From Harriotta raleighana (taxonomy: Eukaryota), in NCBI GenBank assembly GCA_050575255.1, contig JBNZDD010013542.1, positions 1,054,369 to 1,118,368 on the forward strand: 64,000 nt of DNA, read 5' to 3'. The notes under the pieces are model-generated. The model did not search any database, was not told the DNA's origin, and worked only from the letters and a program-made list of their open reading frames with translations. A program made the translations under genes and the position numbers. This document shows positions 3,709 to 62,124 of this stretch, one piece after another. Each line of letters opens with the position of its first letter. Within the stretch, counting starts at the first letter, position 1.

Positions 3709-3752
3709 TGACCTCGGGAGGTCAAAGGTAACCTTGACCGGACGGAAGTTCA
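3709..3752. promoter_or_regulatory. Composite nuclear-receptor half-site cluster
   Basis: TGACCTcgggAGGTCAaAGGTAACCTTGACCG...AGTTCA: everted repeat, DR1-like and DR0-like arrangements overlap in 44 bp. Confidence 0.4.
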
Positions 3753-24331: not shown

Positions 24332-24636
24332 TGATAATAATAATCATAATAATAATCCTTGCATTTGATATAGCGCTTTTCACATCTAGATGTCTCAAAG
24401 CACTTCACAGAAATATGCTGTAAAGAGAATTGACTACATATGTGGGTGAAACATGGTGGCCAATTGCAGTAACCAGTGTCCCACAAACAGCCATGGATTG
24501 AAATGACCAACTTTTTTTTGGAGGAATTATTATTATGTGTGTGGAGTAGGAAACTTGCTTAAGGTTTCGCCAAGATCTGCCTGGATTCAAACACAGGTCT
24601 CGCGCTTGTAAGGCGAGTTCTCTAACCACTGAGCTA
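24332..24636 (-). mobile_element. tRNA-derived SINE, near full length
   Basis: Same family on the reverse strand with an (ATT)n tail. Confidence 0.85.
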
Positions 24637-24921
24637 AAGCAGAGTGGTAGGTTTCTATGGGAATCAGACAGTAAGATGACCGAACAAGTCAGTCAATGGA
24701 TTTTAAACAGTGCCTGTTCTACGTTAAAAAATTCAGTGGGCGTTTCACCAACAAAATATACAGTCAATTCAGGGTACAGTATACAGTAGTCACTCCGGTA
24801 TGCATTCACAGAGGTCCTGCCAACCGTACCAGATTTAGAGGAAACCCAGTTGAGTAAAACTAATTCAAATGAACTGTAATATGAAATTTAGAAAATAATA
24901 TCACTTTAAAATAAAGAATAT

Positions 24922-32437: not shown

Positions 32438-32778
32438 TAGTCCTGTAGCTCAGTGGTCAGAGAACTCGCCTTACAAGCGAGAAACCTCGGTTCGAGTCCA
32501 GGCAAAGGAAAAGCTTGGGGAAGTTTTTTTACTTCTCGTGCCTCACAATAATCCCTCAAAAAAAATTATATTAAAAAATTTGTCAATTCTGTTTGTGGGA
32601 TACTGCTGTGTGCAATTGGCTACTGCGTTTTCCCACAAATATACGGTCAATTCACTTTATAGTATGTTCTGTGAAGCACTTTTAGATGTCTAGAAGACAT
32701 GAACAGCACTATATCAAATCCAAGGATTGTTATTATGATGATTATTGTTATTACTATTATTATTGTTATTGTTATTAT
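32438..32778 (+). mobile_element. tRNA-derived SINE, full length with expanded (ATT)n tail
   Basis: AGTCCTGTAGCTCAGTGGTCAGAG...GGTTCGAGTCC head, family body, TTA-repeat tail. Confidence 0.85.
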
Positions 32779-35295: not shown

Positions 35296-35604
35296 ATATT
35301 AATCCTTTCATTTGATATAGCGCTTTTCACGTCTTCCAGACGTCTCAAAGGGGTTTACAGAATATACAGTAGAGTGAATTGACTGTGTATTTGTGGACGA
35401 AAATGCGATAACCAATTGCGCACGGCAGTGTCCCATAAACAGTCCTGGATTCAAATGATCAATTTATTATCGTTTTTTGGGGACGGATTATTAATAGGCA
35501 TGTGGAGTAAGGAAACTTTCCCAAGGTTTCGCCCTGCCTGGATTCGAAACACAGGTCTCACGCTTGTAAACCGAGTGCTCTAACCACTGAGCCACAGGTC
35601 TCCA
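35296..35604 (-). mobile_element. tRNA-derived SINE, full length
   Basis: Reverse head GGAGACCTGTGGCTCAGTGGTTAGAGCACTCGG...TTCGAATCCAGG with body and tail. Confidence 0.85.
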
Positions 35605-37046: not shown

Positions 37047-37241
37047 GCGCTTTTTGAATTTGGTTAAAGTATGGAACATATTTTTAACGGAACAAATGAT
37101 GTTTCTGATTCCGCGACCTAGTGGATTTCAATAAATTCTTGAATTGCTGGTTTTCCACATTTCAGTGATCGGTGAGGTGTAGGGTGCATGGGTAACGTTT
37201 GAAACTTAGGTTTTATGTGTTTTCTGCTTTGCACCCTTTAA
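37047..37241 (-). pseudogene. Decayed Hox12-type homeobox (putative HoxB12 pseudogene, exon 2)
   Basis: PYT-SP-ITE (37184), VENQ, EFI, then VKNMFHTLTKFKKR (37088-37047) versus Hox12 PYTKQQIAELENE...EFI...VKIWFQNRRMKKKR. KKR is at the exact offset. Candidate acceptor ttaatccag ends at 37242. Confidence 0.5.
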
Positions 37242-38710
37242 CTGGATTAATAGAAACAGTCTGAAGGTTTGTTCAATAAAGAGTATGAAGGCACGATTAT
37301 CCTGTTCCCTGAAACTGCTTTGATCCTCAAAAAGTTGTTCAGAAGCTTCACTGCTCTATATTTAGCGATTCAGATCGAATAACTGGAAGTATTTTCCTTT
37401 TTATAAACTCCCACTTCGCTGAATCTCAATCAGTAGTAAGAGGTCATCGTTAACTGGATAACAGCGACTTATATCTTGGAAATCAGATCAGAGTGACAAG
37501 CTTTCCGGGTGTAATAATTTTAGTTAGAACTACAAAGAATCTTGACTGTTTATTTTGAAACATACTGCATGAGGATGTATCCACAATAAAATGACGTTCG
37601 CATGAGGACATCGACATTTACGTTACATTTATCGTCGAGAAATACACAATAATAATACGCAATACATAGCAAGACATAAACTAATGAGTATTAGAAGAGT
37701 CCAATATGAGTTCAATATCAATAATCTTCACTGTATACCTTCCAAAAAAAATCCAAGCACAGTTATCCCGAAGTGAAAATGAGCAGACATTGAGGACATT
37801 TGCACCAAATGTTCCAGTTTTTGATTAAAATCAAATGGATAGTGGTAGCCATTCGTCTACAGTGACTATGTAACTGCAATAAAATCATTTGCTTATTACT
37901 TTTTCAATCACTCTACATGTTCCAATCAATCAACCGCTCAACAGAGATCTTCAATTGGAATGCTTAGAGCACGCAGCAAAGCCTATCCAGTAAAATGTGC
38001 TTTCACAATCGATCATTCTTATTTATTTTTAGGGTATATCTTTTTTAACATCAATTTCAAGGGAATCGTGATTTTTCGACAGTAGAATTCCAAATATTCA
38101 AATGAAACTCTAGGATATATGAAATAAGGCGCCACCAGACATAGTTGGGTTGTTACATACAAAACGCGAAGTCATATTACAGAAAACATACCGTGGAAAG
38201 ATTTTGTGGATTTTTTTTACATAGAAAAAGGCTAAAACATTTGAAAATACATCAAATCAATTTTTCAAAATTACGATTTCTCTGCATTAGATTTGTAGCT
38301 ACCGGAATATATCTGAATGACTTAAGGAAACCCTTTTCAAAAGCAGAAACTGGTCACCTCGTTCCCCACTCATTTTGCGTACAAATTTTTTTATTGACGC
38401 ACAATAGATTTCGTAACATTTATCCCAATCAAAATACAAGAGGAAAAGACAAGCAACCCGTTCGCTTTTACTTCCTGTTGAGCATATACTAGTCACTTAA
38501 TTGCAAATGGCTGTAAATGAATCGTATACTGACCTTTTTGTTCCAAAGAAAGAACAAAGTCTTTCAAACCTGGCCTGTTCTTTATTCATTCAAATATCTC
38601 AAGTTATGACCTTAATAGTCGGGGGTTAGTTTGTTCCCCCTTCATTAACTCCAGAATTTATCTTGAATCGGGCATCTTATCACCCCATCGCTTTGGCGGT
38701 GAGCACTTAC

Positions 38711-39140
38711 TGGATTAGGCATGGGACTTTATGTTCTCTTAAAGGCTAGACTGTTGTCGAGGGCCGCGGCTCTCCGGCTGATTGTTGACATTGTGCGTTT
38801 CAAGTTCAACGTCAAGGTCAGGCCAGACACAAAGGAAGGAATGAGCAGCACGAACTGCAACCGGTAAACGTTTGCCTTCGTCGAAAATCGATTTGAGTTT
38901 AATTTCACGACTGGCAATAACCGAAAGGAATTGAAATTTGGATCTTTCGTGGTTTATCTTTTTTTTCCTCTTTCATTCATCAACTGTGGTTTGCCTGTAG
39001 AAATAAAAAAGAACACACGCACACAGATAGACAGACACGAAATCAATGTTGACCTTTGGCGCAATAGAGTTCGATTGAACAGTCTCACAAAAGAAAAACG
39101 AATTTGTGTCCAGGATTAAAATTAATCCCGTTAAATATGT
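38711..39140 (-). pseudogene. Putative HoxB12 pseudogene, exon 1 remnant
   Basis: 39140-39090 TYLTGLILILDTNSFFF aligns ungapped with the HoxD12 N-terminus GYVGSLLNLQSPDSFYF. LTLTLNLK near 38800 resembles the LNLN motif near the end of HoxD12 exon 1. Donor CCA|GTAAGT at 38710. Confidence 0.45.
38800..38820 (+). promoter_or_regulatory. Triple-half-site DR0 element
   Basis: TCAAGTTCAACGTCAAGGTCA. Confidence 0.5.
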
Positions 39141-41276
39141 GTTAATCGCCTAAAATGAGTGTAGTTTCTTTAATGTTTTAATAGAATACAGACACCTTAA
39201 ATGGGCAAATGCACAGGGCTATTCGGTTGGTTATTAGCCATCATGTGACGGCTCGAAAGCTTTGAAGTTCGTGGTATAATTTTAACTTCTGCCTCTTCAC
39301 ACGTCGGTTAAAGGCAAATTAAAACATGAAACATTTAATTGCATCCGCTGAAATCGAAGCTGAGCACTAACACGAGAAATACGTGTTAAACATGCGACGG
39401 TTTACCACATGACTGTATTTTAAGTACTGCTAAATAATAATTACGCTTTCAAACGCCGAATGACGTATGCATTTTGAAAGATTGTGACTCTTTGTCGTGA
39501 ATTTTAAACATTTAAAAAAATATATCTAGAAGATTCAGAAAAATATCAATCATAATGAATATTAACAGATTAACCAGATAGGTTTATATCCTGATGCCTC
39601 GATTGAATGAGTTCATTATTATCGTATCTTATGTACACACATACACACACACAATTTTTTTTCGAGCTTCCTGAAAGATGGCTTACTGAATTCCTTATGG
39701 GAGTGTAACGAATCTCACCGACTGTCATTACTGACAGAACCAAGGAACAAAACAGTGAAGAAAATAGTGGATTAAAAAATTGTATCTCAATTGTGTATTA
39801 ATCTGGAAATTAAATTTCCAACCTGATTGCAGCCGGGTGCTCATGTGTCTTCGTCAAACGGGGACTTTGGTGACTTTTTGCATCTAAGATGGTTTGGCTA
39901 GTTATTTCTTCCATCACGAGTGTTTTCATGTGTGTACAGTATAGCAAAATGCACGCATGTTCAAATATTCAACAGGCTTGCGCGTTTATGTTAGCCAATA
40001 ATGGATGGAGCTCCAGGCAACAACAACAAAAAAACACATTTTAAAACCAAGGTGGGGAATTGTAAGTATTTATGAGATTGCAATATATTCAGTTATACAC
40101 CTTACTTGAAAAACGTGGGAAGTATGCATATTCTTACAGTACTAAGATTAGTGCTACTTATGAAACAGCTGTGCAATTAGTACACAGCCATACTACACAA
40201 CGATTATCGCAATGAAAATTCGTGATACATATTCTCATCAAACAAAATGGTTTTGAAACCGTCTTTACGAGAAATAGTCATTTCAGGGGTTTCCAAGCAT
40301 TTTCTACTGCAAGAATGGCTTAATGTTAAGGCTAAATGTTCATCGACCTGGAAGTATTGGTATTAGATCACAATCGATTTCTATCACTCTAGTAACAATC
40401 TTTTTTGTAGGTTTACTGACAACTGAAACAAGCAAAATAATGGAATACAAATAATGGGATACAAATTGAGAAACATGCAGATTGATTTCAGCTCTTGGGC
40501 TGTGCTCTGCACACATAATGATCTGACCATTAGTCTTGCCAGTCAGTGATGGGTCAGACAATCTTGCTCTATATTTATATACAACATATTTTGTCCCTTC
40601 CGACTAAATACGCAGTACAGAATTTAATCAATTCAGAACCACGCGTTGGACATAAGGATATTCTTTAAGGAACGTTGAAAGCATATGATTGTGAATATCT
40701 TCATGTCTTTAACAATTCTTGATATTTCTTACCACTGTCCTGAAATTAATTCTGACATTAGTAACATCTACGGAAAGATTTTAATGATCTAATTATGTCT
40801 ATTTTTCTTCCCCCTGAAATCATTGATGAATTTCAAATGTTTGTATTATATATAGACAATAGTTTATTATTCTATTATATTGAGAAGGTTATCACTTATT
40901 TCCTCAGTTTAAGCATTGTAAATAATCAAGCTCTATTGAAACTCCACCCCATTTTTTTAGAAAGTGAGGGACTTTTACCAATTTTGTCACGTACCGTGGT
41001 TCCTAAGGCAATGGTAACCAAGTAACTCGTAAAGGCAAACAATTCAATGGTTACCTAATGGTCATTTTGCTTCCATCTTGATCGTCACTCTTTACAGAAA
41101 TTCTCGCTTTTTCTTTAGACAAAGACTGGTCCTGGAAAAACCAACAATGTGGTACTGAGCGACATAACAGAAGATGGCGCACTTGGCCTGTACATGTCAG
41201 CAGTTCCAAGAAAGACCCTGTGATTATTCATAAACTGCGAGAAGTCAAGGTCGCTGGCGAGCCCACACGTGACCGC

Positions 41277-43000: not shown

Positions 43001-43248
43001 TTAAGTCGTGTTGCTCTTTACTTTGGCCACGATTTTCTTTTCTTTGACCCTCCGGTTCTGAAACCAGATGGTGATCTGTCGTTCGCTGAGATTCGTAGCT
43101 GCAGAAATCTTCCTTCTCTTGTCTTTTGTGATAAATTTGTTGGTTCCGTATTCCCTCTCCAGTTCTTTGAGTTGAACTTTTGTGTATGGGATTCTTTTCT
43201 TCCTTCCACGGCGAAATTGACCAGCGTCCTGTTGGTGACCCACCACAT
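43001..43248 (-). CDS. HoxB13: Homeobox protein Hox-B13, coding exon 2 (homeodomain)
   Basis: [90 protein letters not shown] and AKVK are B13-type rather than A/C/D13. Tandem CAGCAG acceptor lets the exon start at 43251 or 43248; TAA at 43003-43001. 676+248=924 nt, 307 aa. Confidence 0.97.
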
Positions 43249-43591
43249 CTGCTGTGTGTAGGTTTGCCACGCAAAGAAAGACACAATATTTTTTTTTAAA
43301 TCTCACAGTACTTTAATTTTTTTTCAACAGTATTTTTACTTTTCATAAACTCCCAGCGTTTAAAATTTAAAACAAAAAACGATTTGTTTCAAAATACAAA
43401 TTTCCCGTTAGCGCTGTCACACGTATAACTAACTCTACTGCAAGCTATAACTCGGCATATTTTCAGAAATAATTTCTGCTGCTGTTGATACCGATTCATT
43501 TTCACAACAAACAGCAGAAAGCGAGCGCCGATCGCTTCCAGCGATCACGTTTCTTCACCACAAAATAACACAGGATCTGATTAATTATTAC
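43249..43591 (-). other. HoxB13: HoxB13 intron (about 343 nt, GT-AG, phase 1)
   Basis: GTAATA donor and ...TACACACAGCAG acceptor; splicing restores the frame (LS-D-VV). Confidence 0.93.
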
Positions 43592-44267
43592 CTGACAATG
43601 TGGACTTCCAGAGGTGAGCCGGTTGTGCTTGTTCTTTACAGTACATCTGGCTGTTCCATCCATTGAGGGCCCAAGGCTGGTAGCTGTCCATAGGTAACAA
43701 AGCCTCGTGCCTCGGCTCTCCTGCCCCACTAATGGTCTGCACTACAGAAACGTCCAAATAACTTGGCATGGGCTGGTATGGGCCAGCGTAGCCGTGGTAA
43801 AAGGCGAATTCCTTAGCCCGGCCTGGGTAATCATCGGTGGGCACTGGAGTGTCCATATATTTGTCTCCCGGATAATTCGACAAGGCGGCAGGCTGGGTGC
43901 AAGACTTAATTGGACCTCTACCCATTCGGCACGAGTAGTAACCGCTGCCGAAATATCCGTAAGGCAAAGGGGCTGCGGGAGAGCCCTGGGGAAGGGGCGG
44001 GCAAGGACCACATTGCTTACCGGGCTCCCCTACCCCAGAACCGGACATATCGACCGTGGAGTAACCGGAGCCATGAACCAAAGGTGCGGGGTGTCCTCCC
44101 AGCGCCGAGTGAGCCATCAGATTCCTGCATTGATTCGCGGAGAAATTCCCAGTGTTGACGAATCCTTCCATTACGGCGCTATTCTTTTTAATCTCATTCA
44201 AGTTATTATCATACACGAACATCACAGAGTCGACCCAACGCGGCTTGAGAACCAGTGAAACTGTCAT
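43592..44267 (-). CDS. HoxB13: Homeobox protein Hox-B13, coding exon 1
   Basis: ATG at 44267 begins [22 protein letters not shown] (Hox13 N-terminal motif). Contains [42 protein letters not shown] and [17 protein letters not shown]. Ends WKSTLS at a phase-1 donor CAG|GTAATA (GT starts 43591). Confidence 0.97.
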
Positions 44268-44399: not shown

Positions 44400-44510
44400 G
44401 TTGTTCACGTGATATGCAAAGCACTTAATAAACCCCAAATACAGAATTGCAAAAGAGAGAGAAAAAAAGTTTCATTGCCAGCGAGAAATCCCTAGGTGGC
44501 ACGTGTTCAT
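44400..44510 (-). promoter_or_regulatory. HoxB13 proximal promoter region
   Basis: TCACGTGA E-box at 44405-44412 and a second CACGTG at 44500-44505 overlapping a CTCF-like motif (44489-44502), 140-240 nt upstream of the ATG. Confidence 0.55.
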
Positions 44511-47349
44511 TACAGCGAATTGCATGGAGGAACCATATCAAACAACAGGCAACGATATATCAATTAAACACAAACATGAAATGAACCTCATTTTCCTGCC
44601 GGGAAAATGCGGGCTTCAAGTTCATTTAATGTGTTCATTGCATAATCGATTCTTTATCTGATTAACTTTACAAAGACTTGTTTCCACGGTTGAACATAAA
44701 TTCAGTTAGCATTCGCGTTGTTTTTCAAAGTGCAGCAACCTTAACGACTATTATCTATTTCCCCCATCGCTATTCAGTTAGTTTGAGCTCCATTTCAGCC
44801 TCTTTTCTTCAGACAGGTCATTAATGTGAAAAAATAAAACCAGAAGCAAGGCTTTTCGGTGAAAGAACACAGGTTAAAAACACGCACACATGCACAATAC
44901 AATAATACCCAAGAGGAGGCCTGCAGTGATTACGTTATTTTGTCTGTGTTTGAGATGTCATTTGTTTGTTGGCTATTTCTACCAGTTCTTTTCATTAACT
45001 TCGTGAAAGTATTTAAGTTTTGTTGCGGGTCTGAAGACACCGAAAGTAAAACGGTCCTCGGTGGGATTCTGAAATAAGCATTTTCCACAATGAAAAACTA
45101 CACATATTGGAATATACTAGCGTATTTCAAAGAAGAGCTGCGTGCCAATTATAGTATATTCTAACCGCATCGTTTCAACTTGAATGTCCAAACAGTGGCT
45201 AAGCTGTACTGCTCTCCATAAACCTCTTCAATGTTTTAATTTTTCACGTATGTTACAATGTAGTATACCTATTCGGAAATCTGTACTATATATAAATTAT
45301 ACATCTCAACACTATTGTGATTTTCCTGTGCTATTTATACCTCCGGTTACACCAGTGAACTTTCATTACGTTGTCAACAAACCAATTTTACTCAATAAAG
45401 TCTTAGTAATTGACAGACAGATTTATATCTGGTTTTGATGTTGTACTATGATTATATGAAAGTCGTATTAGCTTTTACGCTAGAATCTTCAACAGGGTTA
45501 ATGGTGTCTAACGGTCCTTTACACTCACAAAAAATGCATTTATTTCTATTTTCCTGTTCGATACTTATTTGCAAATTGGATGCATTTCTCTCTTTAATTG
45601 GATTGAGTCACGTTGGAGTAGTTAGCTCAGAAGCCATTTATTTTCTCAACTATGCCAACTGCATGGGTATATATACAGATTGAAAATGCACCTTCTTTCA
45701 ATCCAATATTTTATCGCTACTCAGAAACCAATGTGATTCGCTCTAAATTTCTGCAGTATACGTTTATGCACGCTGCTATATGGTTACACTGCCAAGTAGG
45801 CTGTGCTTCAATGTTAACTGGTTTAATTGCTAAATTAACTCATATTCAAGCATAGGGATTTTGACTGAAGCTTGGTAATTAAAAAAAGCGAATTTATAGG
45901 ACACTGGAAATCGCCCTTTCACTTCAAACTGATTGCTGTGGTTGAAGAGTGTAAGGCAATAATAATTTTTAATTTGTAGCAAAGATACACTTATTATTCT
46001 TTCAAAATCCTTGAAGATTATTTTGGTTTTAGTATGTCGCAGAGTGAATCCATTAGCATGAAATTTACATTTTGGATAACCCCTATGTGTTTAGTTGGCA
46101 TAGTACATCTTGGAAGAATGAACGAATATTTTATTTATGACTATAGAACAATGTGCGGTACTTATGCAAACGTTAGATAACGAGAGCATCAAATAAAGAC
46201 AAAGGTGGTGACTTTTGGAAAGAATGTTGCTTCAGATCGAGTAGAAAAGGCAAAATAGAGTGTAGCTGGACATTTGTACATTTTACAACCAAATTCGGAC
46301 AGTCAGTGGTTCAGTAGCTCAGTTGGTTGAGTAAGTTATGATGTTGAGACAATATTTTACATGTATAAATGCACCAATTCCACAACCCTCAGAAAGAGTA
46401 CGCCTATTATATCCCTCGTCTTGAATGGTAAATGAACAGCAATTAAAAATATCCAATCCTACTTATTTTTCCAATTGCTACACAAACCCCGCACCGCCTA
46501 ATGGATTTTCCATTAAGACCACCCCAATAAAATGATGCATGTGCATTAACATGCCAATAACACTACATGGAAAAGATTACGACTAGAAATAAACTACTGA
46601 ATTGGGATATTTTAAATATATATATATTTTAAACCATGAACAACATATGAAGCGAAATTTCTAGAAAGTACTCATCATAAGGCAAGTATATCTTGAAATA
46701 ATGATTTTATTAACAGCAAGCTCCAAGTCGGTCTCTGCTTTAAAGATTTGGGATGATCTAATATCTTGAATATCTATCGGTATCTTGTTGTTGTATTGCT
46801 TCCGATAACGAATGGTGCAAAATACCAAATCAGACTTACTCTGGACTGGGCTGTGCCACTAAACTGCCTTGATTTATTAAAAAAGCCTTATCAAAGAAAT
46901 CACAAATAAAATGTTCAATAGCCTTTTTCTCCTCTGAGTAATTCGACGTCCCATTCGGTAAATAAATGTAATGTATTGTTGTTGTTGTTAGACTACTTCT
47001 TACCATTACAGTGTGGAAAACCCAAAGGACCTCGGTCTGTCACGTATATAGCTGTTATTTTTTTGCTTCCCCCCACCCCCCAATCCAAGTTACATATTGG
47101 ATATCCGAGAATATAATATGTTTACTTCCACATTAATGATAAAATTTAATCAATTATTACTGTGGACATCGAAAATTCAAACAGTAAATTGAGGACTGTG
47201 CTTAGATTGCCAGTAGAAGTTTGAGAGACGTGTTTTTGGTGGTGGTGGGAGGGGGATGGTTTATGCGGAAGAAAGTTAGGCCGAACTTGAGACAGAGGCA
47301 ATTTAACAGAGTGGCCTTTTTTACATACGGTTCAGACACGGCTGAAGGC

Positions 47350-47363
47350 CAAGGTCAAGGTTA
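47350..47363 (+). promoter_or_regulatory. DR0 (NR6A1/GCNF-type) element
   Basis: CAAGGTCAAGGTTA preceded by AAGGC (a third half-site). Confidence 0.5.
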
Positions 47364-47433
47364 AAGCTAAGAGTCTAGTCACTATGAGGCCTGTCCTGTC
47401 TGAACCGCATCAAAACAAAACCCTTTATCGCTT

Positions 47434-47482
47434 CAGTGATTCTTTTCTTAGCTCAGACAACTATTCGGAAGCCAATAATGAC
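47434..47482 (-). pseudogene. Possible HoxB14 exon 3 remnant (VKIWFQN...KEKKLL)
   Basis: GTCATTATTGGCTTCCGAAT...TAAGAAAAGAATCACTG resembles GTCAAAATTTGGTTCCAGAAT...AAAGAAAAGAAACTACTG. Position fits the intron-split Hox14 homeobox, but it needs gaps and the acceptor is mutated. Confidence 0.3.
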
Positions 47483-48799
47483 CAGCTTGGAGGAATCGCG
47501 GATCAGTGCGAGACAAGGTGGTAAAACAACCCTTTTTTTTAAACAAAAGCAGTTTACAGATGATTGTATACACTGTGGTTCGACCATAATACTGGGAATC
47601 AGCGGATCAGCATTTGCTACCCCCCAAAATATGAAATATTACGAATAAGACTTTTATCCACAACACCGTATCTGGCCCCCAAAGTGTAAAAAATATTAAA
47701 GAAATTTCATTAGGGTTCATGCAGTTTGAGAATTTTATTGCAGGCACAATATTAGGGGCACGTTATAACTGCATCTAAATGTGTTTCACAACAATCTGCC
47801 GACGAGACATACCTCAGCCAATACACCAACCTGAATGAAGCCCTGACTGTTAAAACTTCAAGATATGAAACTTGGACAGAAGGGAGAGAGAGAGCGAGAA
47901 ACAGCACTGATGTTTTCAGTCACTCACTCAGGTACTGTTGACATTTTAATGTATCCTTAGTTTTATTTTTGCGTGTGATTTGTGTAGAGTTCGGGTATAC
48001 GAGTGTGTACTGTCAATGGCATGAGACATTTGCGAATGTCTCAGTATGTGTAAAGAATATATTTCTCTATGCTAGCTCCTTGCTAATTAATTGTTTAATC
48101 AATCTTTCGGCCCATACGATTATTTGTGTTGGCAACTAACTAATACATGTGAGGTGAAACTGCTTAACGTGTAAACATGATTTTTCCCAACGTTGTTTAG
48201 GAAGTTGGATCATGGCATTTTGCAATTGAAACTCAGAAAGGGTTAACAATGTGGCTGAAAAATGAAAGCACCTTTTTTTTACCATTTATAAATCATCCTG
48301 CATAACGCCGAATCACTCTTAAAGTGCAGTTAGTATCGAAATCTGGGAATGATCATCCAGTTTAAAAAATTGGCCTTTTTGGGAAAAAAAAGTTTATCTA
48401 TATGCCTAATCTTATATGGGCTTCGTGTTATAAATGCCGGTCTAAAACAGTTAACAGGCCCAGTACTGTACATCAGTTAGTTTGGAGTGGGCCACATTGA
48501 TATCTGTCCTTCATCTTTTACCGTTCTTGTCATGAAATGCGTTTTAATGTCGGCTTTCAAATTCAGAAAACGTAGCCTCACGCTCATCATAAACGACCCA
48601 GCTATACAACACAAACTAACTATTTGTTTCTATCAATAGAAATCACGTCCATTCCCCCATCCTCTGCTGCCGACGTTTAAAAGTCAATTAGAATGGGCGG
48701 TTAGATTTATCGAAATATATAGATATATATTACGAAATCGAAAGCATCGGGTATCAAAATCTGTTTGTGAAAAAAAATCCAAGGAAGAAAAGAAAAACA

Positions 48800-48925
48800 A
48801 TATCAGATGATTTATAACTGATTCGATGCTACGTTGGGTGTTGACTCTAATGAGAATCTACAGAACCTTGACTGTTTCGTTATATTCTGCTGCCTGGCAG
48901 GAGAGCTCTTTGTGCGCAATTACCC
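48800..48925 (-). pseudogene. Decayed Hox14-type homeobox 5' part (putative HoxB14 pseudogene, exon 2)
   Basis: Acceptor TTTACAG| at 48926. From 48916: RTKSSPARQQNITKQSRFCRFSLESTPNVASN, then a 2-nt deletion, then (I)SYK. Ungapped match to Hox14 RKKRVPYSKHQITELERAFEENRFLTPE(I/V)RLNISFK at R, K, P, IT, R, TP, V, N and S-K. Confidence 0.7.
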
Positions 48926-49674
48926 CTGTAAATGATTTAGTTCCCAATAGAAACATGGAGGCTTTGCCCTACTTTTAGACTTGGTGGAAAATAGCCCATT
49001 GAAAAATAAATTAATATAAAATTAATAAGTGAGTATTTGTGGAGATTGAAATATGTCCCATTATTATCAGTATGCAGTTGAACTGCCTCAATATGTACAA
49101 AGAATAAGGCAAAGTTTTGCTCCTTAATCTCCATAATATATTTGTTGATATACGTGAACATGCCGAGGTTTAAATGTGCTCCACATTCTTACAAAAGGGC
49201 ACAGTCACCTATAAATTCGGACCAAATTTATAGGTGTATCTTATGCACATACATACAAAAACACATACATTTGAATAATATTTTTGTGAAGCAATTCATT
49301 TGTTTAATTCATGCTTGGTTCAGTTTCAACCCTTTTCAGTTTGTAATACGTTGTATATAATTTGCTAAAATATCTATTTCAACGTAATAATTCACATTTT
49401 GCTCTATTCAAAGTCAAGTAGTTGCCAACACAAGATGGTTTTTAAAATTATATTGCATATAAAAAAATTAATCTTTTAAAAATATAAAAATAAGTTTAAC
49501 GATTAATCCAAATATTTTAGTTTTTAGATAAATGTTTTAATATCATTAAACTCCAGCCCTAACCACCTCTAGAAAACAAATTAGGTAACTGACACATTGG
49601 TCAACATATAACAATTAGAATACCTTCTAATATCATGTGAAACAAACTCGATATATTTTTATATAATTTATAAG

Positions 49675-49975
49675 GGCGAAACCTTAGACAAGTTTCCTTA
49701 TTCCCCACTTCTCATCTTTCCTAGCAGTGAGTAGGAACCCAGTTAGTTAATTGGCGGATCGCTTTCTGGGGATAATAATCCCTTCAAAAAGAAAATTGGT
49801 CGCTCAATCCATGACTGTTGTGAGACACCGCTCACAACAATTGGCTGGCGAGTTTTCTCACAAAATGCACAGTCAATCCATTTTGCAGTATATTCTGTGA
49901 AGCGCTTTGAGAAGTAAGTCTCAATATGATGAGACGTGATGAGATCAAATGCAAGGATGGTGATTATTATTATTA
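49675..49975 (+). mobile_element. SINE lacking most of its head
   Basis: GGGCGAAACCTT...AAGTTTCCTTA...CAGTATATTCTGTGAAGCGCTTTGAGA...TCAAATGCAAGGAT. Confidence 0.7.
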
Positions 49976-51287
49976 ATTATGGGACGAAATTGATTTAGCA
50001 CAATATTCCTGACCAAGTGAAATAGATTTCCTGTAAATTGACTGAGAAATGGAAATTCCGTCGTTAACGACTGATGCACTCAAACCTGCAAATTACTGAA
50101 ATATCGATCTCTGTATTCTAGCCTGAATTTATCTCGCCTGTTGGCATATCACTGCAAATAAAAATAACCAACCGTATATCATGATTCATTTCCTGCCTCT
50201 ATTTCACTGAAGTTTCTCTACAAAACACGTTTACATTTTTGTAGGAAATAGCTTTGACTGACAGGGGAAACAGATTGCTTCAAGTCGAATAGCAATTGCA
50301 ATCCAGTTTCCAGTTGAATTTCTTTTTCCAGTATATTCTCTTCAACCGAATTGATGCCTTTTAACGAAAAGGTCCAAATGATCGTATGATCTGTAAACCT
50401 CATGTAGTTTGCATTTAACTTTAAATGTATTTAACTCCAAGTGCAAAATCAGCAAATACACCCATAAATAGATGCAATAAATTAAATGGCCTTGGCCATT
50501 ATATAATTTGTTGATTATTCGTGTCGTGCTCACGTGCAGTTCAATAACCGTGTGTAACTGTGCTGGATAAGTTGTGATAATTATCAAAGGTGACAATTAT
50601 CACATGACGTAAGGCATGTCGCTCTCAGTGACGAATAGAACGATATAAAAACGTAGAGGATGAGACATTAGTTGCACAAATCTGTCCACCTAAATATCAA
50701 AGTAATACTTCTGGAGCACAAATGGCATTTTCCCACAGGTATTAAAGAATTTCCATATTGGTGCATCGCGTGTTTATTCAAAGAAAGGCATATTCTAGAG
50801 TTTTACAATTCTATTTTACAATACGGAATATTCCTTTCGCGTTTACATAAACCTACCATGCAGCCTCGTAAATATATGTTTATTCGATTATCGAATGGCT
50901 TATTGGAAATAAAAAAGGAAACATGCAAACAAGGGGTAATAATTATAATCCTTGCATTTGATATAACGCTTTTCATGTCTGCTAGATATCTCAAAACGCT
51001 TTACGGAATACACTAGTCAAGGAGAAAGGAAAAGGCGAGAGTGCAAAAGGGGGAAAAAATGAATTCGGGAGAAAGACAATGAAAGAGAGTGTAAAAAGAG
51101 AAAGTCAGACAGACAGAGCGCGACAAAGAGAGCCAGTGTGTCTGTGAGAGAGAGGGGGAGAGAGAAATCGTGTGAGCCCTACCATACCCAGATTTGCTGG
51201 GGCTGTAGGCGGTTTCTGTTTACGTTTGAACACCCAATCACGTCGTTTTGTATGACTTGCCAATCATTGGGGGCCAGACAGCGCTTT

Positions 51288-51301
51288 TGACCTTGAACTT
51301 G
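51288..51301 (-). promoter_or_regulatory. DR0 (NR6A1/GCNF-type) element near CCAAT boxes
   Basis: Minus strand CAAGTTCAAGGTCA; CCAAT at ~51234 and ~51260. Confidence 0.5.
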
Positions 51302-54300
51302 GCTTCTAACAATTCCGAGCTTTCCAGTATTTATCGTAGATGCAACATCAGGCACATATATGGAGAAAATATACACGTATATGCATATCTTTCACGTTAA
51401 TAAAGTAGCGAGAAAGCTGATTGAAACTATATGTGTACCCGAGTTTGTATATATGCTCTCATGTGTATATTTAACGTAGATTATTTGGAGCACAAATTAG
51501 ATTTGTCTCACAGCATGTCATCACGCAATATGGCGCGTGAATCGATTCCCTTCCCTTTCCTTTTGCTCAGTGACCAACGCAGTCTTGTCAAGCGCTCCGA
51601 GTTATTATCCTGCGTTAAAGGCGTTATATAAATGCAAGTTGTTGTTGATATTGTTGTTTATTGCACACACATACATTGACGGTTTATAGAAGGAATGCTT
51701 TAATTGGGGTGAATGCTTCAAATCTCTGTCTGTATGCCGGTATGCCAACTCCCCTCACACAAAGCAGCCAATGTTTGTTAGGTTGAATGAAACCCCACCT
51801 TGCTGTCTGGTAAATACGTGCTATGTGTTTTAACTGTTTGTCTGTATTGTACACTGTGAGTTACTTTTACAAGGTCTGGTGGGGGGTGGTGGCTATATAA
51901 AACTCTGTACATGCAGTATTGTTTTTTCGTGATCATTCAACCNCTATATAAAACTCTGTACATCATCTCCATGCAGTATTGTTTTTTCGTGATCATTCAA
52001 CCTTATGTGTAGGTTTGTAACTATGTTAGCCTGTAAATTGCGAGACGCATTATTTTTTAGATTTAGGAAAATAATATTTAATTTGAGGTGTTTATTCTTC
52101 TCCTTTTACTTCGAGGCACTGACTTGCCGATTGTAAAGATTGTTTCATTAACTGGACGTTTTTCATGTAAATATGTATCCTGCGGGATAGAAATATTTAG
52201 ATATTTTCGTCATGAATCTAATCTTAACGTTGACATTTAAAACATTTTGTTTTGAGCAAAGTAAGAAAAAAATGCACAATTATTGTACGGTTTGTGTCAG
52301 TTTCAGACACACACACACACAAGACTATGTTAAACCATTTTCTCCATTTGAATACTCAGAGAATAACACACAACTGTTGCTTTATATGAACACAAATTGG
52401 GAAAGTGGAATAATGAAAAGGAATGACCAGGATCGGGGAAAATACTGAAAACTACAAATATTCAATCCCCAACTTTCCAATAAACACGTTATATATAGCG
52501 CGTTGCAAATATTATCGTTGTATTTTAGCTTGTGACTTTGTTATTGGTAAAGGACGACAGATTTCCTGTACAAGGATGCAATGACATTAGAAGATTGAAA
52601 GTGATAGTACTGCACTCCTTCAACCGAAATAATTTAATTACAGCAAAGCTGTTTGTCCATACATGGGATGAAATGCGTGCAGTGGACTTTTTTCTTTCGA
52701 ATGAAAACGTTATTTCAACTCTTGGAGTACATTAGTTTATTTAGGACTGTGACTTGTCCTCTCGCTCAAATGAGGAAAGAAGGTTCGAAACACTTGTCAA
52801 GACTAACCCCTGATGATACCATAAGGGCTGGGATTTCTTTGGAGGAATATCCCCCGATAATATTTTAAGGTTACATTTGTATTCCATTCTGTTAAAAGCC
52901 CAACTCTAATTATGAACCCGTTTGATACTTGATTGAATAATAAATTATTAATCGACAAAAGTGTTGTTAATTATTAATCGTTTAAGATATTAAAAGAACT
53001 ATATTAACAAGAGGGACTTCACTTTGACATACTTTATACATTTTACATAGGTTTAACGTCTTCAATCACTCACAAATTAAGGAGGTGAGATTTCAGCTAA
53101 ATCATGAAATAATTTAGTGTCCAGAATTGAGCAAAAATTTGCATTCATTCTTACTTTGAAGTCCATAAAATAATTTGCAGGAAACTTACAGGATCCGTGT
53201 TTCAAAATTAAGGTTGTGTTTAAGAGTTTGCCTTATTTTTGCTGCTCTAAAATGTTACATAAATATGGTAGATCTAGCCTCGTTTGGAATGGCGGCTATG
53301 CAAAATTCAGTGCATCACATCCATACATTTTTGTTTTATCTTGAACAAACACATATTATTGATTTAAAGATATGCTTGTCGGTAATTTGTGGGCGGCCTC
53401 GTTTTTTATATTTAGGGATAAGATATTTAATTAGTCTCCGAAACGTTTATTTATTTCTTTACCTGTTGTTACTAAATCGAAAATTGTACAGTGCTCAAGG
53501 GGATAAATGAATCTTCTATCATTAATTTACAAACAAGGAGTAGGAAAGGAGAATAGATTCACTCTGAGAGAGTGAGAGTTGGGACATGCAAAGCGAACTG
53601 AAAAGGGACACTGAAGAAAATTGATTTGTCAATTTCAAACTGATCATACGTTTTTATTTGGCAGTAATTAAAATTTAAAATAAATAACTATTCATTATTC
53701 GATGTGATTCGATGTCACATTGTTAGTTCCCAAGAGATCTCATTGGACTGAACCACAAAAAAATGCATATGTGCCTGTTTGCTTGCACTTTGCACTAAAA
53801 CCGAATACATTCACATTGAAAACTCCTCAAAGCGCATCATCGATAATTATTACCAAACGTTTAGTTACTCTTTTCGTAAGCAAATCCCAGTAGACATTTG
53901 CGACAGACTGATCCTGCACAAATCCATGTTGGGATCAATTTATAAGAAAGATTAGCCGCCAAGATGGTTATATATTTCTTTAACAGAGCCGAAAAGCCTG
54001 CTTTATAGAGTGAAGCAAAGGACTGCGATCTCTCTTCTTTCATTAATTTACACACAAAACAAAGACATCGTTGTGCCAGATCACAACTGTGTTTTAGACT
54101 CGTGAGGTCAGACTTGCTATTTAATCATAGGGATTGTCACGTATCAATGTATAATGGCCACAGTCATCTTCGATGATGGATGATTAAGTGATCAGTATTG
54201 GTGATTTTTTAAAATATTGTTTCCATTCCTACGTTTTTGAATACATGTCGGGCGGTGTAAGCAAATGTAACAGGAAAACATGTTTGTGCCACAGGTTAGA

Positions 54301-56489
54301 GGTGACGTCTGCTTCGGCCACGTGACCGCCTTTCCCGCTGTAAAATAAAACAAGAGGGTTTTTGTTGAACAGTTGAAGTTATTAATCCTTTGGAACGAAA
54401 ACAAAACACGTGAATAATCATTCAGAATGGCCCACAAAAGCCTGTGAACCTGCTGATCGAGTGATATCTGCAACGACAATCATATAAACCCATCAGAACT
54501 TTTCCAAGCGCCTGACTAACCAATATTATGTACCCATTACTCTCGAAAAGCGAATTTTATCAAATAGGTACACCGCAGAACCTGGTATTTTTCTATTAAC
54601 TCAATCTTGTTTTACGTAGCATGGCGACAATGTTGAATTTTCCCTACTCTTGTCGATTAGAGATCATTTAAAAAGCGGTAAATCGCCCACTCGATCATCT
54701 GCAATAAGAAAATTCGATTATGAAATATAATGAAAGTCACTTCTTAATCAATCATACGAATTAACATTAGTATTATGAAAAACATAGTGCGCTGCACGTC
54801 TCTTAATATTTGAGAGCGTTATTAGAATTATTAATGTTATTTTGGGGGGGGGTTGATAATAATTCACTAGATTAGTGGTACTTTCACCACTAACAGTCTG
54901 TGGCAGAGCTAAAAAGGACAGCAGAGTTATTCGGTTAATTGATCCCATCAGCTGCGGTGTGATTAATGTCTTGAATGAAATATATCTGGTTAATGTAACA
55001 CTGACTATCGCTAAGCAGCTTCCAACCCAGTACTAAGGATCTGGAAAATCGTATGGATCAACTAGGAAGTAAATGTTACTTTTCCCCCAAAACAAGTTTT
55101 CAAAAAATCAAAAAAAGACAATTATTAAAATAGCTTTACTGGCAATAGGAAAACATACAGTTCACAAACTGTATATCAATCAGTGAGTGGGATCGTAGGA
55201 TACCATATTTAGATGAATTCGTTAATGCCTGTGAGCTGACATATTGAATATCGCCGCTCATAAGGCAGCCTGTATATCGGCAGTGTAGCTAGTCACATGA
55301 TCAATATCATAGTTCATGTTTTAATATACTCTGATTGCCAATTATTCTGCCTTCTGGTAAAAGTATTATTCCCATGTGCATTCTCTGTCGTTAATATCAA
55401 ACTTTAGTTACCTGCTAACTTTTATATTCACTATATTCATAAATATATTTCATCTCCAGTAGTTACAGATTCTGAAAGTAAGGTGTACCTGGTAAGAAAG
55501 GTGCCCCTTTCACGTTTTCTTTTATTAGAATCCGCCCTAGATACAATTTGGGATTCATTATCAAATGCGAGGATTATTATTAGTACTATTATTGATCAGT
55601 ATACGGAAAGTGGAATTGGCATTATGCTATTCCTTGCAAATGACCATAAAATCAGTAACTGTAGCGAGGTATTTCTGTGCAGTGTTCACATCTCATAAAG
55701 GAATTCCTTTCTCGAGGACATCAGGGTTGCATTATTCCCTTCAAAAGGACAGATGAACTGCAGTAAACGGATCAAACTGACGTCGAATTCTATTTGACAT
55801 GAAAGTGACATAAATCCTTAAGCTTTTTACACTGCTCTGCGGGGAACACGGCGACCAGTAAATGTACGGTTTCTTCAACTCTGCTGACCGAGACACCGGA
55901 GAGCAGTGCTTGGAAACCAATGTACTGTCTATTCTCGCCACCTTGGCCGATGTTTTTTTTTCTTTAAATAATCTAAACAAGGCCGATGTAGCTGTTTTAT
56001 CTCGAATCCACTTTCCCATCTTGTTTCAATTTGTTGCTTTGAAGGACATTAGTAAACTCTGTATTTCGGTTAAGGTTGCTTTGTCAATTATATTTCATCT
56101 GAAAAGATCACTAAAATCCTGCACTGTCAGGCGGATGAAACTATCCTCTTATCCGGATATTCACAGTTACACTGATATACACATACAAACGAATAAAAAC
56201 AGATGATATAAAACATGCAAACATTTACAAACACACAGATATACGCAAATACATGGATGCACACATACAAATACACAAAGACACCCCTAACCACTCACAC
56301 GCATTTACATGCACAGATTTCCACCATAGATATGCAACATCGTTGGGCTGCATGGGTGGGAAGGTAGGTGGCAAATGTAGTTCAATGACAAAGTATGCGA
56401 TCAACGTTATTTAGCGTCATTGGTGTAACGTCTTACATGGAGGTGAACACTTATGATAAGCAAAACCCAACAGGGAGATTCAAGGAAGA

Positions 56490-56680
56490 CATAATATTAA
56501 GAATCCTTGGAATTGATATAGTGCCTTTGAGGTGTTTCATAAAATATACTGTAAAGTGAATTCACAGTGTATTTTATGGGCTAATCATGGCAGCCAATTG
56601 TGCACAGGTGTGTCCCACAAACATTCGTAGATTGAGTGACCAAATTATTATTATTTATTTTTGTAGGGATTATTTCCCTC
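56490..56680 (-). mobile_element. SINE 3' half
   Basis: AATATACTGTAAAGTGAATT...GGCAGCCAATTGTGCACAG family motifs. Confidence 0.7.
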
Positions 56681-59519
56681 CTATTTGCGACGCAGCAATC
56701 ATCTAATAACCGTGTTTCTTCTTACTGCTTTGTAAACCTAAAAGACATATACGTTCGGAAGCATTTTGTTCGCAAAGAAAATGAGCCAAAGATACTGTTA
56801 CAGAGAACACGCTTAGCCATAATGGTGGAAGTAATCAGTGATATTCTAGCTGTTTACAAAATACAGCAATAAAATGTTACATATTACATTGTGGTATTAT
56901 GAATACGAAACAAAAACACGTTTTTTTAAAGGAGATGAGGCATACAAGATCCACAATGCGCAAATTACTTGTTGCAAAGCCAACAGTGAGAGCAGATGAA
57001 GCCAAATATATCCGTGGTTTATATCCATGGGGATATAATTACAAAAGTAATGAGGCAATGGTAACATTGAACACATTAGGCCACATCTGGAGCAATCTAC
57101 ATAGTTTTGGGCAACCAGATAGACACGCACACCGATGCATTCACATATAGTTGTCCCACAGAGATACAGATACATATATGCATACACATGCACCGATAGT
57201 GAAACACATGCAGAGATAGACGCAGATAAAATCGTATACAAAACGCAGACAACCAATACAAACATCTTAACAAATATTCTCTGTATCGTTGCGCAATGTT
57301 GGTGCTGGAGAACCGCATAGGTCTTTCTGACCTATCAACACAGGATAATTTGAATTATAAATGGAATATTGGAAACTCAAATCCAGTCTGATATTTAACC
57401 AGTGAGGCAAGAGTTTGGTCTGGTAGCTCTCTTTTTCAAGGAGCGAAAAATTGTTTGTGCGTAAAAATGAAGAAATTAGATAGTGTTGGAAAACCATGAT
57501 CCAGCAAGGTTTCTGCAAATACGTTTGTGTGGTCAGAAACCTATAAGCTCAAAAAGCTTCTGAAATCTTCTCAACCGTGTGAATCTATTTTTAGAGAAGA
57601 GAAGGCTGTCGCAGTAGTTTTTTTCAGATAAACGGATATTGTGATCCGATTAAGTGGGGATTATAGCAATTCGGGGGTTCAATTGCGCTTGGAAGCAGAG
57701 CTTGATATCTTCAGATAAGTAAATGCCTAAAATAAGCCTGAACCCTGATTATACTCAGGGTATCATTTTATAAAAAGTAAACGCCGCCGTATTATTTGCC
57801 CTACGTCAGAATAACACTATAGGTATTCCATTGTTCGGATTAATATTTTCAGAACTAAATTCTCATCCAATATACTTAGACTTAAAATGGTATACTTAAA
57901 CTATCATTTAAAAAAACTATATCGGTTTATGAATTGTAAGTTTATTTTAGACAAAAGCGTCATTGTCATGAAATATTATTCGTGGCCACTGTGCTTAACT
58001 TTCCTCTGATTTATAAATTAAAGAATGTGTTTATTATCACTGTTTTGTTCGTGCGTAAATTAGACAAAGAAAGTAAGTGTTTGGGTTCCCTATTTTTATA
58101 TTGCTGCAGTGAATTTTCCAATTCCTTTCTTTCCATTTTGTGCATGGTTTACGAAAACCTAAAACGAACTATGGTTGCTCTGCATTGTGTTCCAGTTAGA
58201 TGTGAATTACACGTAGGAATTACGTGTAATTTATAAAAATAGTGTTTGGGTTGGAACAGAAGTAAACACTTCTGTAAAAATTCAGAAATTAACCACTTCT
58301 GGATTATTGTTTAAAAATAAATTTTAGAAATATTGAATCAAATACATATTTCACACAATAAAAAGCGATGCCAATTTACCCTTAAGGATAGATGTTGTTT
58401 TAAGAAAAAATAAAACATTTTCTTGAAAAAATGAAGTCATTTACGAGATTAAGTGTCAATCATTTAGAAACAAAAAAAACATTGAACGTGGCAGATTCGT
58501 TGCGCAAAAAAAAAACATGCCCTGTGAAGTTTTAGAAAATAAATTAGTTGACATCTGGAAATATGTTTAACTGCAACTGATGTAATAGGTCAGGGAGGTT
58601 ATCAAGATAAGATAGATAAACTCAAAAATGTAAAAGTGTAATATAAACATGGCGGCAAGTTAAGGCATATGGTCGGTTTCGATCGTGTTTTTTTTTGGAA
58701 GCGAATGTTTTCGAAAGCTTTAATGATAACAGTTCATTAACCTTCACTTAACAATAGGATATATACATTTCGAGTATCCTGGAGCACATTGATAATGTTT
58801 CTATTTTGCTGACAGTGCGCGCTTCTGAATAACTGATTTGGCGCCTGTTTTAATATACAGTATCTGGAATGCAGAGTAAAATACTGATAAACCAACTGCT
58901 GTCGGCTGTAACGCTAACTGATACAACTCGTTTTGTAAAGAACAACCAAATGTAATTGACACACAACATACATTTAACCATGTAATCATTGTATATAATA
59001 CTGCCCCCCCTCCCCCCCCGCCCCCCCCATCACCACCATCAATATGCCTGACGTCTACTTAGAAAGGCGAACCACGGTGCACACACAATAGTGTGTAAAT
59101 TTAGGTGATATTTTATTGTACGAAAGTAAACACCAGTGGTAAAAACGTACGTTAAATGAATGTCCAACAATTCACAGTATCTGGAACTCAAATATTGATG
59201 TATCAACGTTACGGTTGCTACAGCAGATACAAACAGGTATAAATGTTGCACAGAATAATTTTAGCAGAACATAAGAACACACACACGTAAGAATTTGTAA
59301 GGTGAAAGAAAGCCGAGGTCCATCCAGTTCGCTTCCCACCAGCAGCAGCGTAAAATGTCAGGAATAAGAAAAGCAGAATTTGCCAGGAACTTAACTCAAT
59401 CACAATATTCATGTTACAGGGTTACAAAACATGAAGTTCGTAACAGAAAGAACACGATTTGAAAAGAGTAAAATCTACACAACAATATACATTGATTACA
59501 TAGTCATGGCGTACAAAAA

Positions 59520-59796
59520 CAACATTGCATTTGATGTCTTCTAGATGTCTCGTCTTCTAGATGTCTCAAAGCGCTTCACAGAATATACTGTAAAGGGCAT
59601 TGACTGTATATATGTGGGCGAAACGTGGCAGCCAATTGCGCACAGCAGCGTCCTACAAACAATCCTGCATTGAAATGGGATTTTCCGAGGAATTATGTTA
59701 AGGCGTGCGGAGTAAGGTTGAAGGTTTCGTCCTGTCTGGAACTCCGGTCTCTCGAGTGCTATGTGAGTGCTCTAACCACTGAGTTACAGGACTCCA
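59520..59796 (-). mobile_element. tRNA-derived SINE
   Basis: Reverse head GGAGTCCTGTAACTCAGTGGTTAGAGCACTC with body and tail; internal GTCTTCTAGATGTCTC duplication. Confidence 0.85.
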
Positions 59797-60090
59797 CGAT
59801 TGCTCTGTCCGTGTGCGACAGGGATGTACTAATACAGCAACGTTGATACAGAAAGATTTAATATATTCCACTGTTTTATTGTCATATTGTGTACCAAATG
59901 GACAAATCTAGCGCTAAGACAAACTTCGGTAACAAAATTCACTGCAGTGCACAACCAGCAGTTGATTCACCTGGTTTGTGAAGGCCATCTCCTATAAAAG
60001 TAAGATTTAAAATAACTCATTGACATTCACCTCACGAAGCTCTGTGGCTCCGTGACATTCCGGGCTGTTTATGTACCGCTTTCGTGGCAT

Positions 60091-60244
60091 NNNNNNNNNN
60101 NNNNNNNNNNNNNNNNNNNNNNNNNNNNNNNNNNNNNNNNNNNNNNNNNNNNNNNNNNNNNNNNNNNNNNNNNNNNNNNNNNNNNNNNNNNNNNNNNNNN
60201 NNNNNNNNNNNNNNNNNNNNNNNNNNNNNNNNNNNNNNNNNNNN
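60091..60244. other. Assembly gap (N run)
   Basis: Run of N. Confidence 0.99.
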
Positions 60245-60544
60245 ATTAGCAGAACCATGAATCATTCTGTCCCAATCCCGCACAACATTTCGAGCAACGA
60301 TTATACTAAGAAATTTAAATTCTCGTGTTTGAGCATATGATGGGAACTCGTGTTGTTTTTAAAGGGAATGCGGCTGATTCCAGCCTGTTAATCCACAGCG
60401 CCAAGTAATGAATACAGAAACGTTTAGTTTGGCCAAACCGGTCTATTATTGTGATTAAGTATGATTGTATCTGTATACCTGTATATAGTGGCTTTCCCAC
60501 AACAAACTCAAGTGACGATTGATATTTTTCCCATAATGTTTCTG

Positions 60545-60695
60545 ACGTCCAGTCACAAAGGCAAACCGCGGTAAACACACAAAGTTTCGTGCACAAAATA
60601 GAGTCAATCTATTTACATTAAATACTGCGAAGCGCTTTGAGACATCTCAACTACGTGATAACGATGTGACTACATCAAATGCAAGGATTATTATT
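60545..60695 (+). mobile_element. SINE 3' fragment
   Basis: GAAGCGCTTTGAGAC...ATCAAATGCAAGGATTATTATT. Confidence 0.65.
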
Positions 60696-61789: not shown

Positions 61790-62000
61790 GGAATAATCTA
61801 TTAAAGAATAATAATATATAGGCCACCCAATCCACGATTGTGGGACAAAGTTCTACATAATTAGCTTTCGCGTTTTGCCCCCAAAATATACAGTCAATTC
61901 ACTTTACTACATTCTGTGAAGCACTTTGTGACATCTCGAAGATTTTTTAAAAAAAACTGTGCTAAATACAAGGATTATTATCAATTATTATTATTAATAA
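61790..62000 (+). mobile_element. SINE 3' half
   Basis: AATATACAGTCAATTCACTTTAC...TTCTGTGAAGCACTTTG tail. Confidence 0.7.
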
Positions 62001-62124
62001 CAATCACCTCCAAAATGACAAACTATCACAGAAGAGTCTATTTGATATTGAGGAGAGTGAGGAGGTTAAAGATTCAGGGGCACTGTAAGAAAAGATAACA
62101 TTGAGTGCGATGTTGGAATCCTCT

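Follow-up and report, generated by a model that had tools for sequence, protein, structure and literature searches.

A possible intronless HoxB12 relic behind HoxB13 in the chimaera Harriotta raleighana

The DNA analysed here, a 64,000-nucleotide stretch of contig JBNZDD010013542.1 from the chimaera Harriotta raleighana (hereafter the window; assembly GCA_050575255.1, positions 1,054,369 to 1,118,368), is the posterior HoxB end of a holocephalan, as exon 1 of its HoxB13 gene is 98% identical to HoxB13 of Callorhinchus milii. The same exon is 80-82% identical to shark and ray HoxB13 proteins, and the protein as a whole differs from that of C. milii at only a few residues. HoxB13 (43001-44267, minus strand; exon 1 from 44267, exon 2 ending at 43001; Pfam HoxA13_N and Homeodomain) is intact, and it is the sole intact gene detected in the window. 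To our knowledge, HoxB11 and HoxB12 occur in no jawed vertebrate, and their former existence is deduced from the other clusters only. At 38,883-38,487, on the HoxB13 strand and 4,118 nucleotides behind that gene, lies a segment that aligns to HoxD12 and may be a remnant of HoxB12. An initial annotation had proposed a two-exon HoxB12 pseudogene about 4 kb downstream of HoxB13; the idea of a decayed Hox12 at that distance gains some support from our analysis, by other DNA than the segments put forward, namely DNA that the annotation had placed in exon 1 and the first part of the intron, and the proposed anatomy is rejected.

Decay was modelled with a codon profile hidden Markov model, in which an ancestral Hox12 coding sequence decays neutrally with frameshifts allowed, against a second-order background model of the window. 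The reference proteins comprised a HoxC12 set and a HoxD12 set of 118 each, including shark C12 (P0382) and C. milii D12 (P0502), with 10 aligned per set. Column-shuffled or block-shuffled profiles served as decoys and dinucleotide shuffles of the sequence as a separate control. Planted Hox12 genes that had decayed by no more than 0.5 substitutions per site were recovered in 24-25 of 25 runs when insertions and deletions were few; with more of them at 0.5 the figure was 14-17 of 25, falling to 3-15 at 0.7 and to 0-1 at 1.0 or above.

Under the full-length D12 protein profile in its intronless form, 38883-38487 (minus strand) aligns colinearly from the 3' part of exon 1 through the homeodomain, spanning columns 115-259 of 268 and carrying 5 stops and 7 frameshifts. 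Its local score of 20.3 bits is the best match outside HoxB13 in the window (122 kb scored), the next being 13.0, and it was reached anywhere in the window by 0 of 409 column-shuffled and 1 of 411 block-shuffled decoys, and by 0/600 and 1/600 dinucleotide shuffles of the region; with uniform codon usage the score is 22.0 bits. A set of 88 other teleost D12 proteins, which are homologues and hence no independent test, again had its top match here (14.9 bits, 1/100 decoys). Single-protein windows of at least 12 bits were obtained at the site with 45 of 118 proteins of the D12 set, 1 of 118 C12, 0 of 91 B13/A13 and 10 of 155 other homeodomain proteins, and other profiles gave 4.4 bits for Hox13, 8.3 for part of Hox11 and only 6.6 for C12. 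Within the window the segment has no second copy, its depth in four runs is that of single-copy DNA, and it fits the place of a Hox12 gene between Hox13 and Hox11 on the cluster strand. Searches by tblastn and nhmmer with the HoxB13 homeobox of the window, and by hmmsearch and tblastn with HoxC12, gave no match outside HoxB13.

The segment was found through an unbiased scan of all 261 fourteen-codon profile blocks, which led to the exon-junction peptide at 38698-38650. Extended at the right length from this peptide through the homeodomain to 38487, the D12 profile scores 18 bits in a geometric end-to-end mode (0/150 decoys in 10 kb); in local mode, 2-9 of 150 decoys reach the score of the same extension with D12 profiles. 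The phase-1 intron of HoxD12 and HoxC12 would lie in the Gly codon preceding a W-containing peptide, as judged from the read-through and mis-spliced database proteins P0508, P0398, P0500, P0423, P0272 and P0328. The corresponding codon here is the GGG of an SDG motif (38684-38686, minus strand), and no intron is present at it. An exon-1-only model, which must stop before the Gly codon, peaks at 38687 with 10.5-11.8 bits, as one of three similar peaks within 130 nucleotides, and an exon-2-only model, which must begin after it, peaks at 38683 with 11.9-12.7 bits, the best among the starts tested in 38760-36500. The two separately scored models abut across the Gly codon and give an exact exon-exon junction. 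The exon-1-like part (38687-38883, minus strand) resembles the last third of HoxD12 exon 1 (columns 115-189 of the 268 in the profile) in an uncertain internal register, and the exon-2-like part (38487-38683, minus strand) contains the pre-homeodomain peptide (xxxCPxQ) and a decayed homeobox at about 38653-38493, ending in K*LV where KRLV is expected. As a match to the group-12 pre-homeodomain peptide (DG-x-x-W-x-P), HRQSDGVIRCPIQ ranks 1 of 127,922 positions against the D12 profile, in a 13-codon block chosen post hoc and with the W replaced.

The segment lies in a CpG-rich patch (38600-39500) with 14-18 CpG per 300 nucleotides, against a window median of 7; the 18 CpG at 38660-38960 are equalled by 1 of 213 tiles, at a GC content of 46%. 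In the relative X11, 38444-38916 differs at 34 of 473 nucleotides compared with 310 of 2531 in five listed flanking pieces, a rate close to that of HoxB13 exon 1 with its upstream DNA (81/1173). The slower change has a binomial p of 0.0002 with rate variation ignored, and the comparison stands on one run (X11) and the longest pieces listed, other relatives giving no piece over the segment. None of the vertebrates compared has a lower neutral rate than C. milii (PMC3964593), and a low rate helps a relic to survive.

All motifs named in the initial annotation lie on the minus strand, as does HoxB13. The N-terminal motif, translated YLTGLILILDTNSFFF, is indeed found at 39137-39090 (minus strand), where it is indistinguishable from chance: it occurs literally in 0 of 236 Hox12 proteins, the 194 of them with an identifiable counterpart of the segment agree with it at 3-5 of 16 residues, and it is equalled or beaten under the Hox12 decay matrix by 207-667 of 127,904 window positions. 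The pieces of the homeobox ghost (PYT/ITE, VENQQ, EFI, VK..F..KKR) can likewise be read at 37184-37047 (minus strand), spread over three different frames in 138 nucleotides where 156 are expected (net -18), and score at background level, as 66-312 of 426 tiles match or exceed them in 9 of 9 settings and the shuffled-sequence check went against them (527/600 dinucleotide shuffles with D12 and 372/600 with C12). Relative X5 gave no alignment over 37112-37242. The score of the two segments as a pair was reached by 300 of 300 column-shuffled decoy profiles in 4 of 4 settings, and equally good matches, named beforehand as the outcome that would count against the proposal, proved common for both. 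The GTAAGT donor (38705-38710, minus strand) exists, inside the exon-1-like part and 23 nucleotides before the junction, as does the CAG acceptor ending at 37242, which with the ghost occupies 37047-37244 (minus strand). Neither gains support as a splice site: GTAAGT occurs 11 times on the strand and the exon-1 model scores 5 bits there, and the exon-2 model started at the acceptor scores 1-2 bits. An intron of about 1.5 kb between them gains no support from the exon models, which favour an end at 38687 and a start at 38683. The GTCACATGA element followed by ATG codons (39244, 39241) is present at 39249-39241 (minus strand), possibly as a promoter remnant or by chance; GTCACRTG occurs 5 times with 3.2 expected, and ATG 39241 ranks 2 of 186 ATGs in 10 kb as a Hox12 start, which is not significant.

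Several other layouts were rejected. An in-frame N-terminal reading of 38950-38690, which conflicts with the final alignment, was equalled by 12-129 of 200 decoys in 16 settings. When it was paired with a homeobox at 36861-36763, 1-81 of 100 decoys did as well across 36 settings, and the Bayes factor ranged from -15 to +2 bits. Within 10 kb no other stretch matches that D12 block better without gaps than this homeobox-like sequence (minus strand, AT-rich, F*IEFLVSI*INKQ), and its joint tests were not significant. Whole-gene models of two exons with an intron were matched by 61-64 of 100 and 16-22 of 150 decoys, and the segments of the initial annotation were never among the top matches of nucleotide-level and codon-level decay profiles run as separate modules.

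The signal of a Hox12 relic is faint and the evidence moderate, and a number of observations weigh against a HoxB12 origin of 38,883-38,487. The intronless model was picked after the data had been seen, following about ten failed layouts on three profile sets, so that we discount its p-values by perhaps 10-20 fold; this discount is partly offset because cluster order predicts both the place and the strand of the match. HoxB12 should be about equally close to HoxC12, and the missing C12 match therefore counts against the relic (5.9-6.6 bits; 74/100 decoys and 211/600 shuffles as good). An anchored search found none of the N-terminal 114 codons upstream (268/300 decoys score equally), and the phase-1 intron expected of group 12 at the Gly codon is absent. 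We do not class the segment as a proven group-12 member, because the intron and the N-terminal block were both tested and neither was found. A background of local composition cuts the score to 14.4-14.9 bits, about 5 bits stemming from local GC; two higher or equal matches then flank an N gap at 60.1-60.2 kb and are artefacts of this background, the next reaching 11.7-13.6. In end-to-end modes, DNA at 3.3-3.9 kb scores as high as or above the relic. The same bases can also be read in a Hox10/9 register, at 8-17 bits, that is incompatible with the D12 register, and hence one of the two is a chance match of that size. Pfam found no Hox family on 12 read-through frames, and an atlas search with the 74-codon open stretch returned no usable match. 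Exact intron loss is rare in this lineage, and as C. milii shows few intron changes (PMC3964593), the loss is a costly assumption.

The rival that we take most seriously, while regarding it as rather unlikely, is that there is no recognisable gene relic: the stretch would be a non-coding, CpG-rich element under mild constraint in the HoxB13 spacer, and its D12 alignment the best of many chance alignments. Many models were tried, several mutually exclusive alignments of the same bases looked convincing by eye, and the site slightly raises all homeodomain windows (median 6.0-6.4 versus mostly 3-6 at control tiles), in addition to the silence of C12 and the N-terminus and the bits taken by the local background. 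However, composition-preserving decoys and shuffles almost never reach 20 bits, the match is where cluster order predicts it, and the exon models join exactly at the junction. The competing register gives rise to another rival, a displaced copy of Hox10 (or Hox9) exon 2 in which 38737-38637 is read as the LTA.S..RCP..LEL.K segment. Exon 2 alone scores 8.5-13.3 bits locally with Hox10 (2-23/100 decoys in 10 kb) versus 8.0-8.7 with D12, Hox9 reaches 8.3-11.0, the single proteins P0214 and P0231 reach 14.5 and 17.0 bits, and with an AG ahead at 38738 no intron loss is required. Models of equal length nevertheless give 16 bits versus 25 for D12 at the two longer lengths and 13.5 versus 17.1 at the shortest, a comparison that favours D12 since the Hox10 profile consists of five partial, mostly teleost, sequences. 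The segment WLTAKSG-RKKRCPY fits at the site with four frameshifts, and 155 of 627 window-wide decoys reach the score of Hox10 versus 0 of 469 for D12. As there is also no Hox10 exon 1 upstream, cluster order would be broken and fish Hox10 DNA fails to align at the site, we hold this origin to be improbable.

A single step would account for the lack of both intron and N-terminus and for a resemblance to D12 that C12 does not share if a 5'-truncated processed HoxD12 messenger RNA copy, rather than a HoxB12 descendant, had been inserted here, and AATAAA with 7 A lies at 38395. Without homology such a copy would be very unlikely to land in another Hox cluster just where Hox12 belongs and on its strand, the A run begins just about 90 nucleotides past the end of the alignment, and only short direct repeats of low identity are seen in place of a convincing target-site duplication; a poly-A tail and target-site duplication would both be eroded at the age of the relic. 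We regard such an insertion as quite improbable. Least credible of all, and in our judgement very improbable, is the two-exon anatomy, in which exon 1 would begin near 39170 and run to the donor at 38710, followed by a 1.5-kb intron and a homeobox at 37.2-37.05 kb. Its motifs exist and are colinear, and the test would overlook a relic decayed by at least 1 substitution per site (0-1 of 25 planted genes recovered), so that its result does not bear on a very old relic at these segments. Both segments are, however, at or below background, exon 1 would be about 115 nucleotides short, a stronger homeobox candidate exists at 38.65-38.49 kb and the ghost is unaligned in X5.

We therefore give about an even chance to the reading of 38,883-38,487 as an intronless HoxB12 relic, predicted from sequence as the decayed 3' half of the coding sequence, syntenic behind HoxB13. 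HoxB12 would then have survived the vertebrate genome duplications and lost its single intron exactly. The most likely route would be recombination with complementary DNA made from its own messenger RNA; alternatively, the intron could have been lost by repair at the GG microhomology of the junction. The gene may have been inactivated before the holocephalan radiation, probably before the jawed-vertebrate split, and its 5' half would then have decayed or been deleted. The relic presumably yields no protein today, and any present role would be that of non-coding DNA in the spacer insulating HoxB13. It could still be readable owing to the slow evolution of chimaera DNA and to a CpG-rich stretch more constrained than its flanks, probably as part of that insulating spacer.

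Comparable cases are known. In C. milii, 45 Hox genes are accompanied by pseudogenes of A14 and B14 (PMC3707753, PMC5054437), and bowfin and gar retain a hoxd14 pseudogene (PMC8423624). Like these, the HoxB12 candidate is unitary, in cluster position and in a slowly evolving fish genome (PMC3707753, PMC8423624); unlike them, it would belong to paralogue group 12 in cluster B and is far more decayed, with 7 frameshifts and 5 stops in 145 codons, and invisible to tblastn, hmmsearch and Pfam. The bowfin hoxd14 pseudogene keeps a splice junction and is transcribed (PMC8423624), whereas our candidate has no intron. With HoxD12 of C. milii (P0502) and ray-finned fishes it shares the SDG / xxxCPxQ junction peptide, homeodomain spacing, the V.I.F and KRLV positions and aligned length, and it differs from HoxD12 by lacking the intron and the N-terminal 114 codons, by being non-coding and by its place in cluster B. 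The exact exon-exon junction and the retained 3' part resemble a processed pseudogene or intron loss mediated by reverse transcription, for which 3'-biased exact loss is the usual pattern (PMC2275149), but in contrast to a processed pseudogene the candidate is syntenic and has no clear poly-A tail or target-site duplication. The mouse Hoxb9-Hoxb13 spacer is gene-free, with Hoxb10-12 missing, and is thought to retain CTCF sites of the deleted genes (bioRxiv 10.1101/2024.07.20.604409). CTCF-like matches are predicted from sequence in the chimaera spacer as well; in mouse the genes were apparently deleted and the sequence is poorly conserved (bioRxiv 10.1101/2024.07.20.604409), whereas here coding relics seem to persist.

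A further relic was detected at 6900-6650 and 4730-4660 (minus strand), where a Hox12 N-terminal profile and half of a Hox11 homeodomain together outscore all 150 decoys in each of two settings; the method is thus able to see a relic in the window. The homeobox at 4.7 kb is Hox11-like (13.9 bits versus 4.4 for Hox12 and 7.2 for Hox10). No position of the window matches the Hox12 N-terminal motif better than exon 1 at 6.9 kb (rank 1 of 127,904), in a comparison that contained no Hox11 N-terminus. The HoxB11 remnant mentioned in the initial annotation probably corresponds to this Hox11-like posterior relic at 6.9-4.6 kb, although a B12/B11 fusion by deletion is possible. A 79-nucleotide tandem duplication with a single N at 4833 lies just upstream of the Hox11-like homeobox (4755-4911) and looks like an assembly join.

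We tentatively hypothesize, with somewhat less than even confidence, that chimaeras keep fossils of both missing posterior HoxB genes, an intronless HoxB12 at 38.9-38.5 kb and HoxB11 at 6.9-4.6 kb, and that the spacer consists of genes decayed in place, with part of a dead exon kept as constrained non-coding DNA. The HoxB12 relic, a fossil and no working system, would then be direct evidence for the gene after the genome duplications, which it outlived, having been transcribed in the germ line long enough to lose its intron via its own complementary DNA, which would be a rare instance of a vertebrate Hox gene losing an intron exactly. It would have resembled HoxD12 rather than HoxC12, which would throw light on cluster relationships as well as the ancestral Hox12, and would provide sequence for testing relationships among the four Hox clusters. 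The long spacer that delays HoxB13 would moreover be shown to form by decay in place. The literature searched contains no report of a HoxB12 or HoxB11 relic, a scope that did not extend to the primary chimaera Hox-cluster paper or to supplements, either of which could mention conserved elements here; the available sections of PMC2746220, PMC12952989, PMC3038165, PMC2211742 and PMC10587355 likewise do not mention one.

Elsewhere in the window, mir-196 and HoxB10 were not found within 43 kb downstream of HoxB13. A HoxB14 pseudogene has been reported upstream of HoxB13 in C. milii (PMC3707753), and Hox13 profiles detected no HoxB14 relic in 45000-64000. In end-to-end mode, several profiles of Hox12, Hox10 and Hox13 give 7-16 bits at 3300-3910, on both strands. 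A CTCF consensus matches 6 times versus 3.1 expected, a count reached by 9 of 100 shuffles. The best match (37124-37111, minus strand, 1 mismatch) lies inside the homeobox ghost, and the other five (19471-19484, 15121-15134, 41167-41180, 44489-44502 and 1415-1428) are on the opposite strand; these predicted sites are a lead only. Two elements with a common GGCGGTCACGTG, at 41310-41240 and 54335-54300 (minus strand), are likely regulatory, judging by their sequence; the one at 41.3 kb contains TGACCT repeats and shows conservation among relatives (X10 differs from it at 20 of 549 nucleotides), and the one at 54.3 kb is preceded by a splice-acceptor-like sequence. No tandem repeats were found in the relic region, and the only Rfam matches, none of them in that region, were three transfer RNA-like heads of a high-copy short interspersed nuclear element (32441-32510, 35529-35601 and 24575-24643), with very high depth at 35.5 kb.

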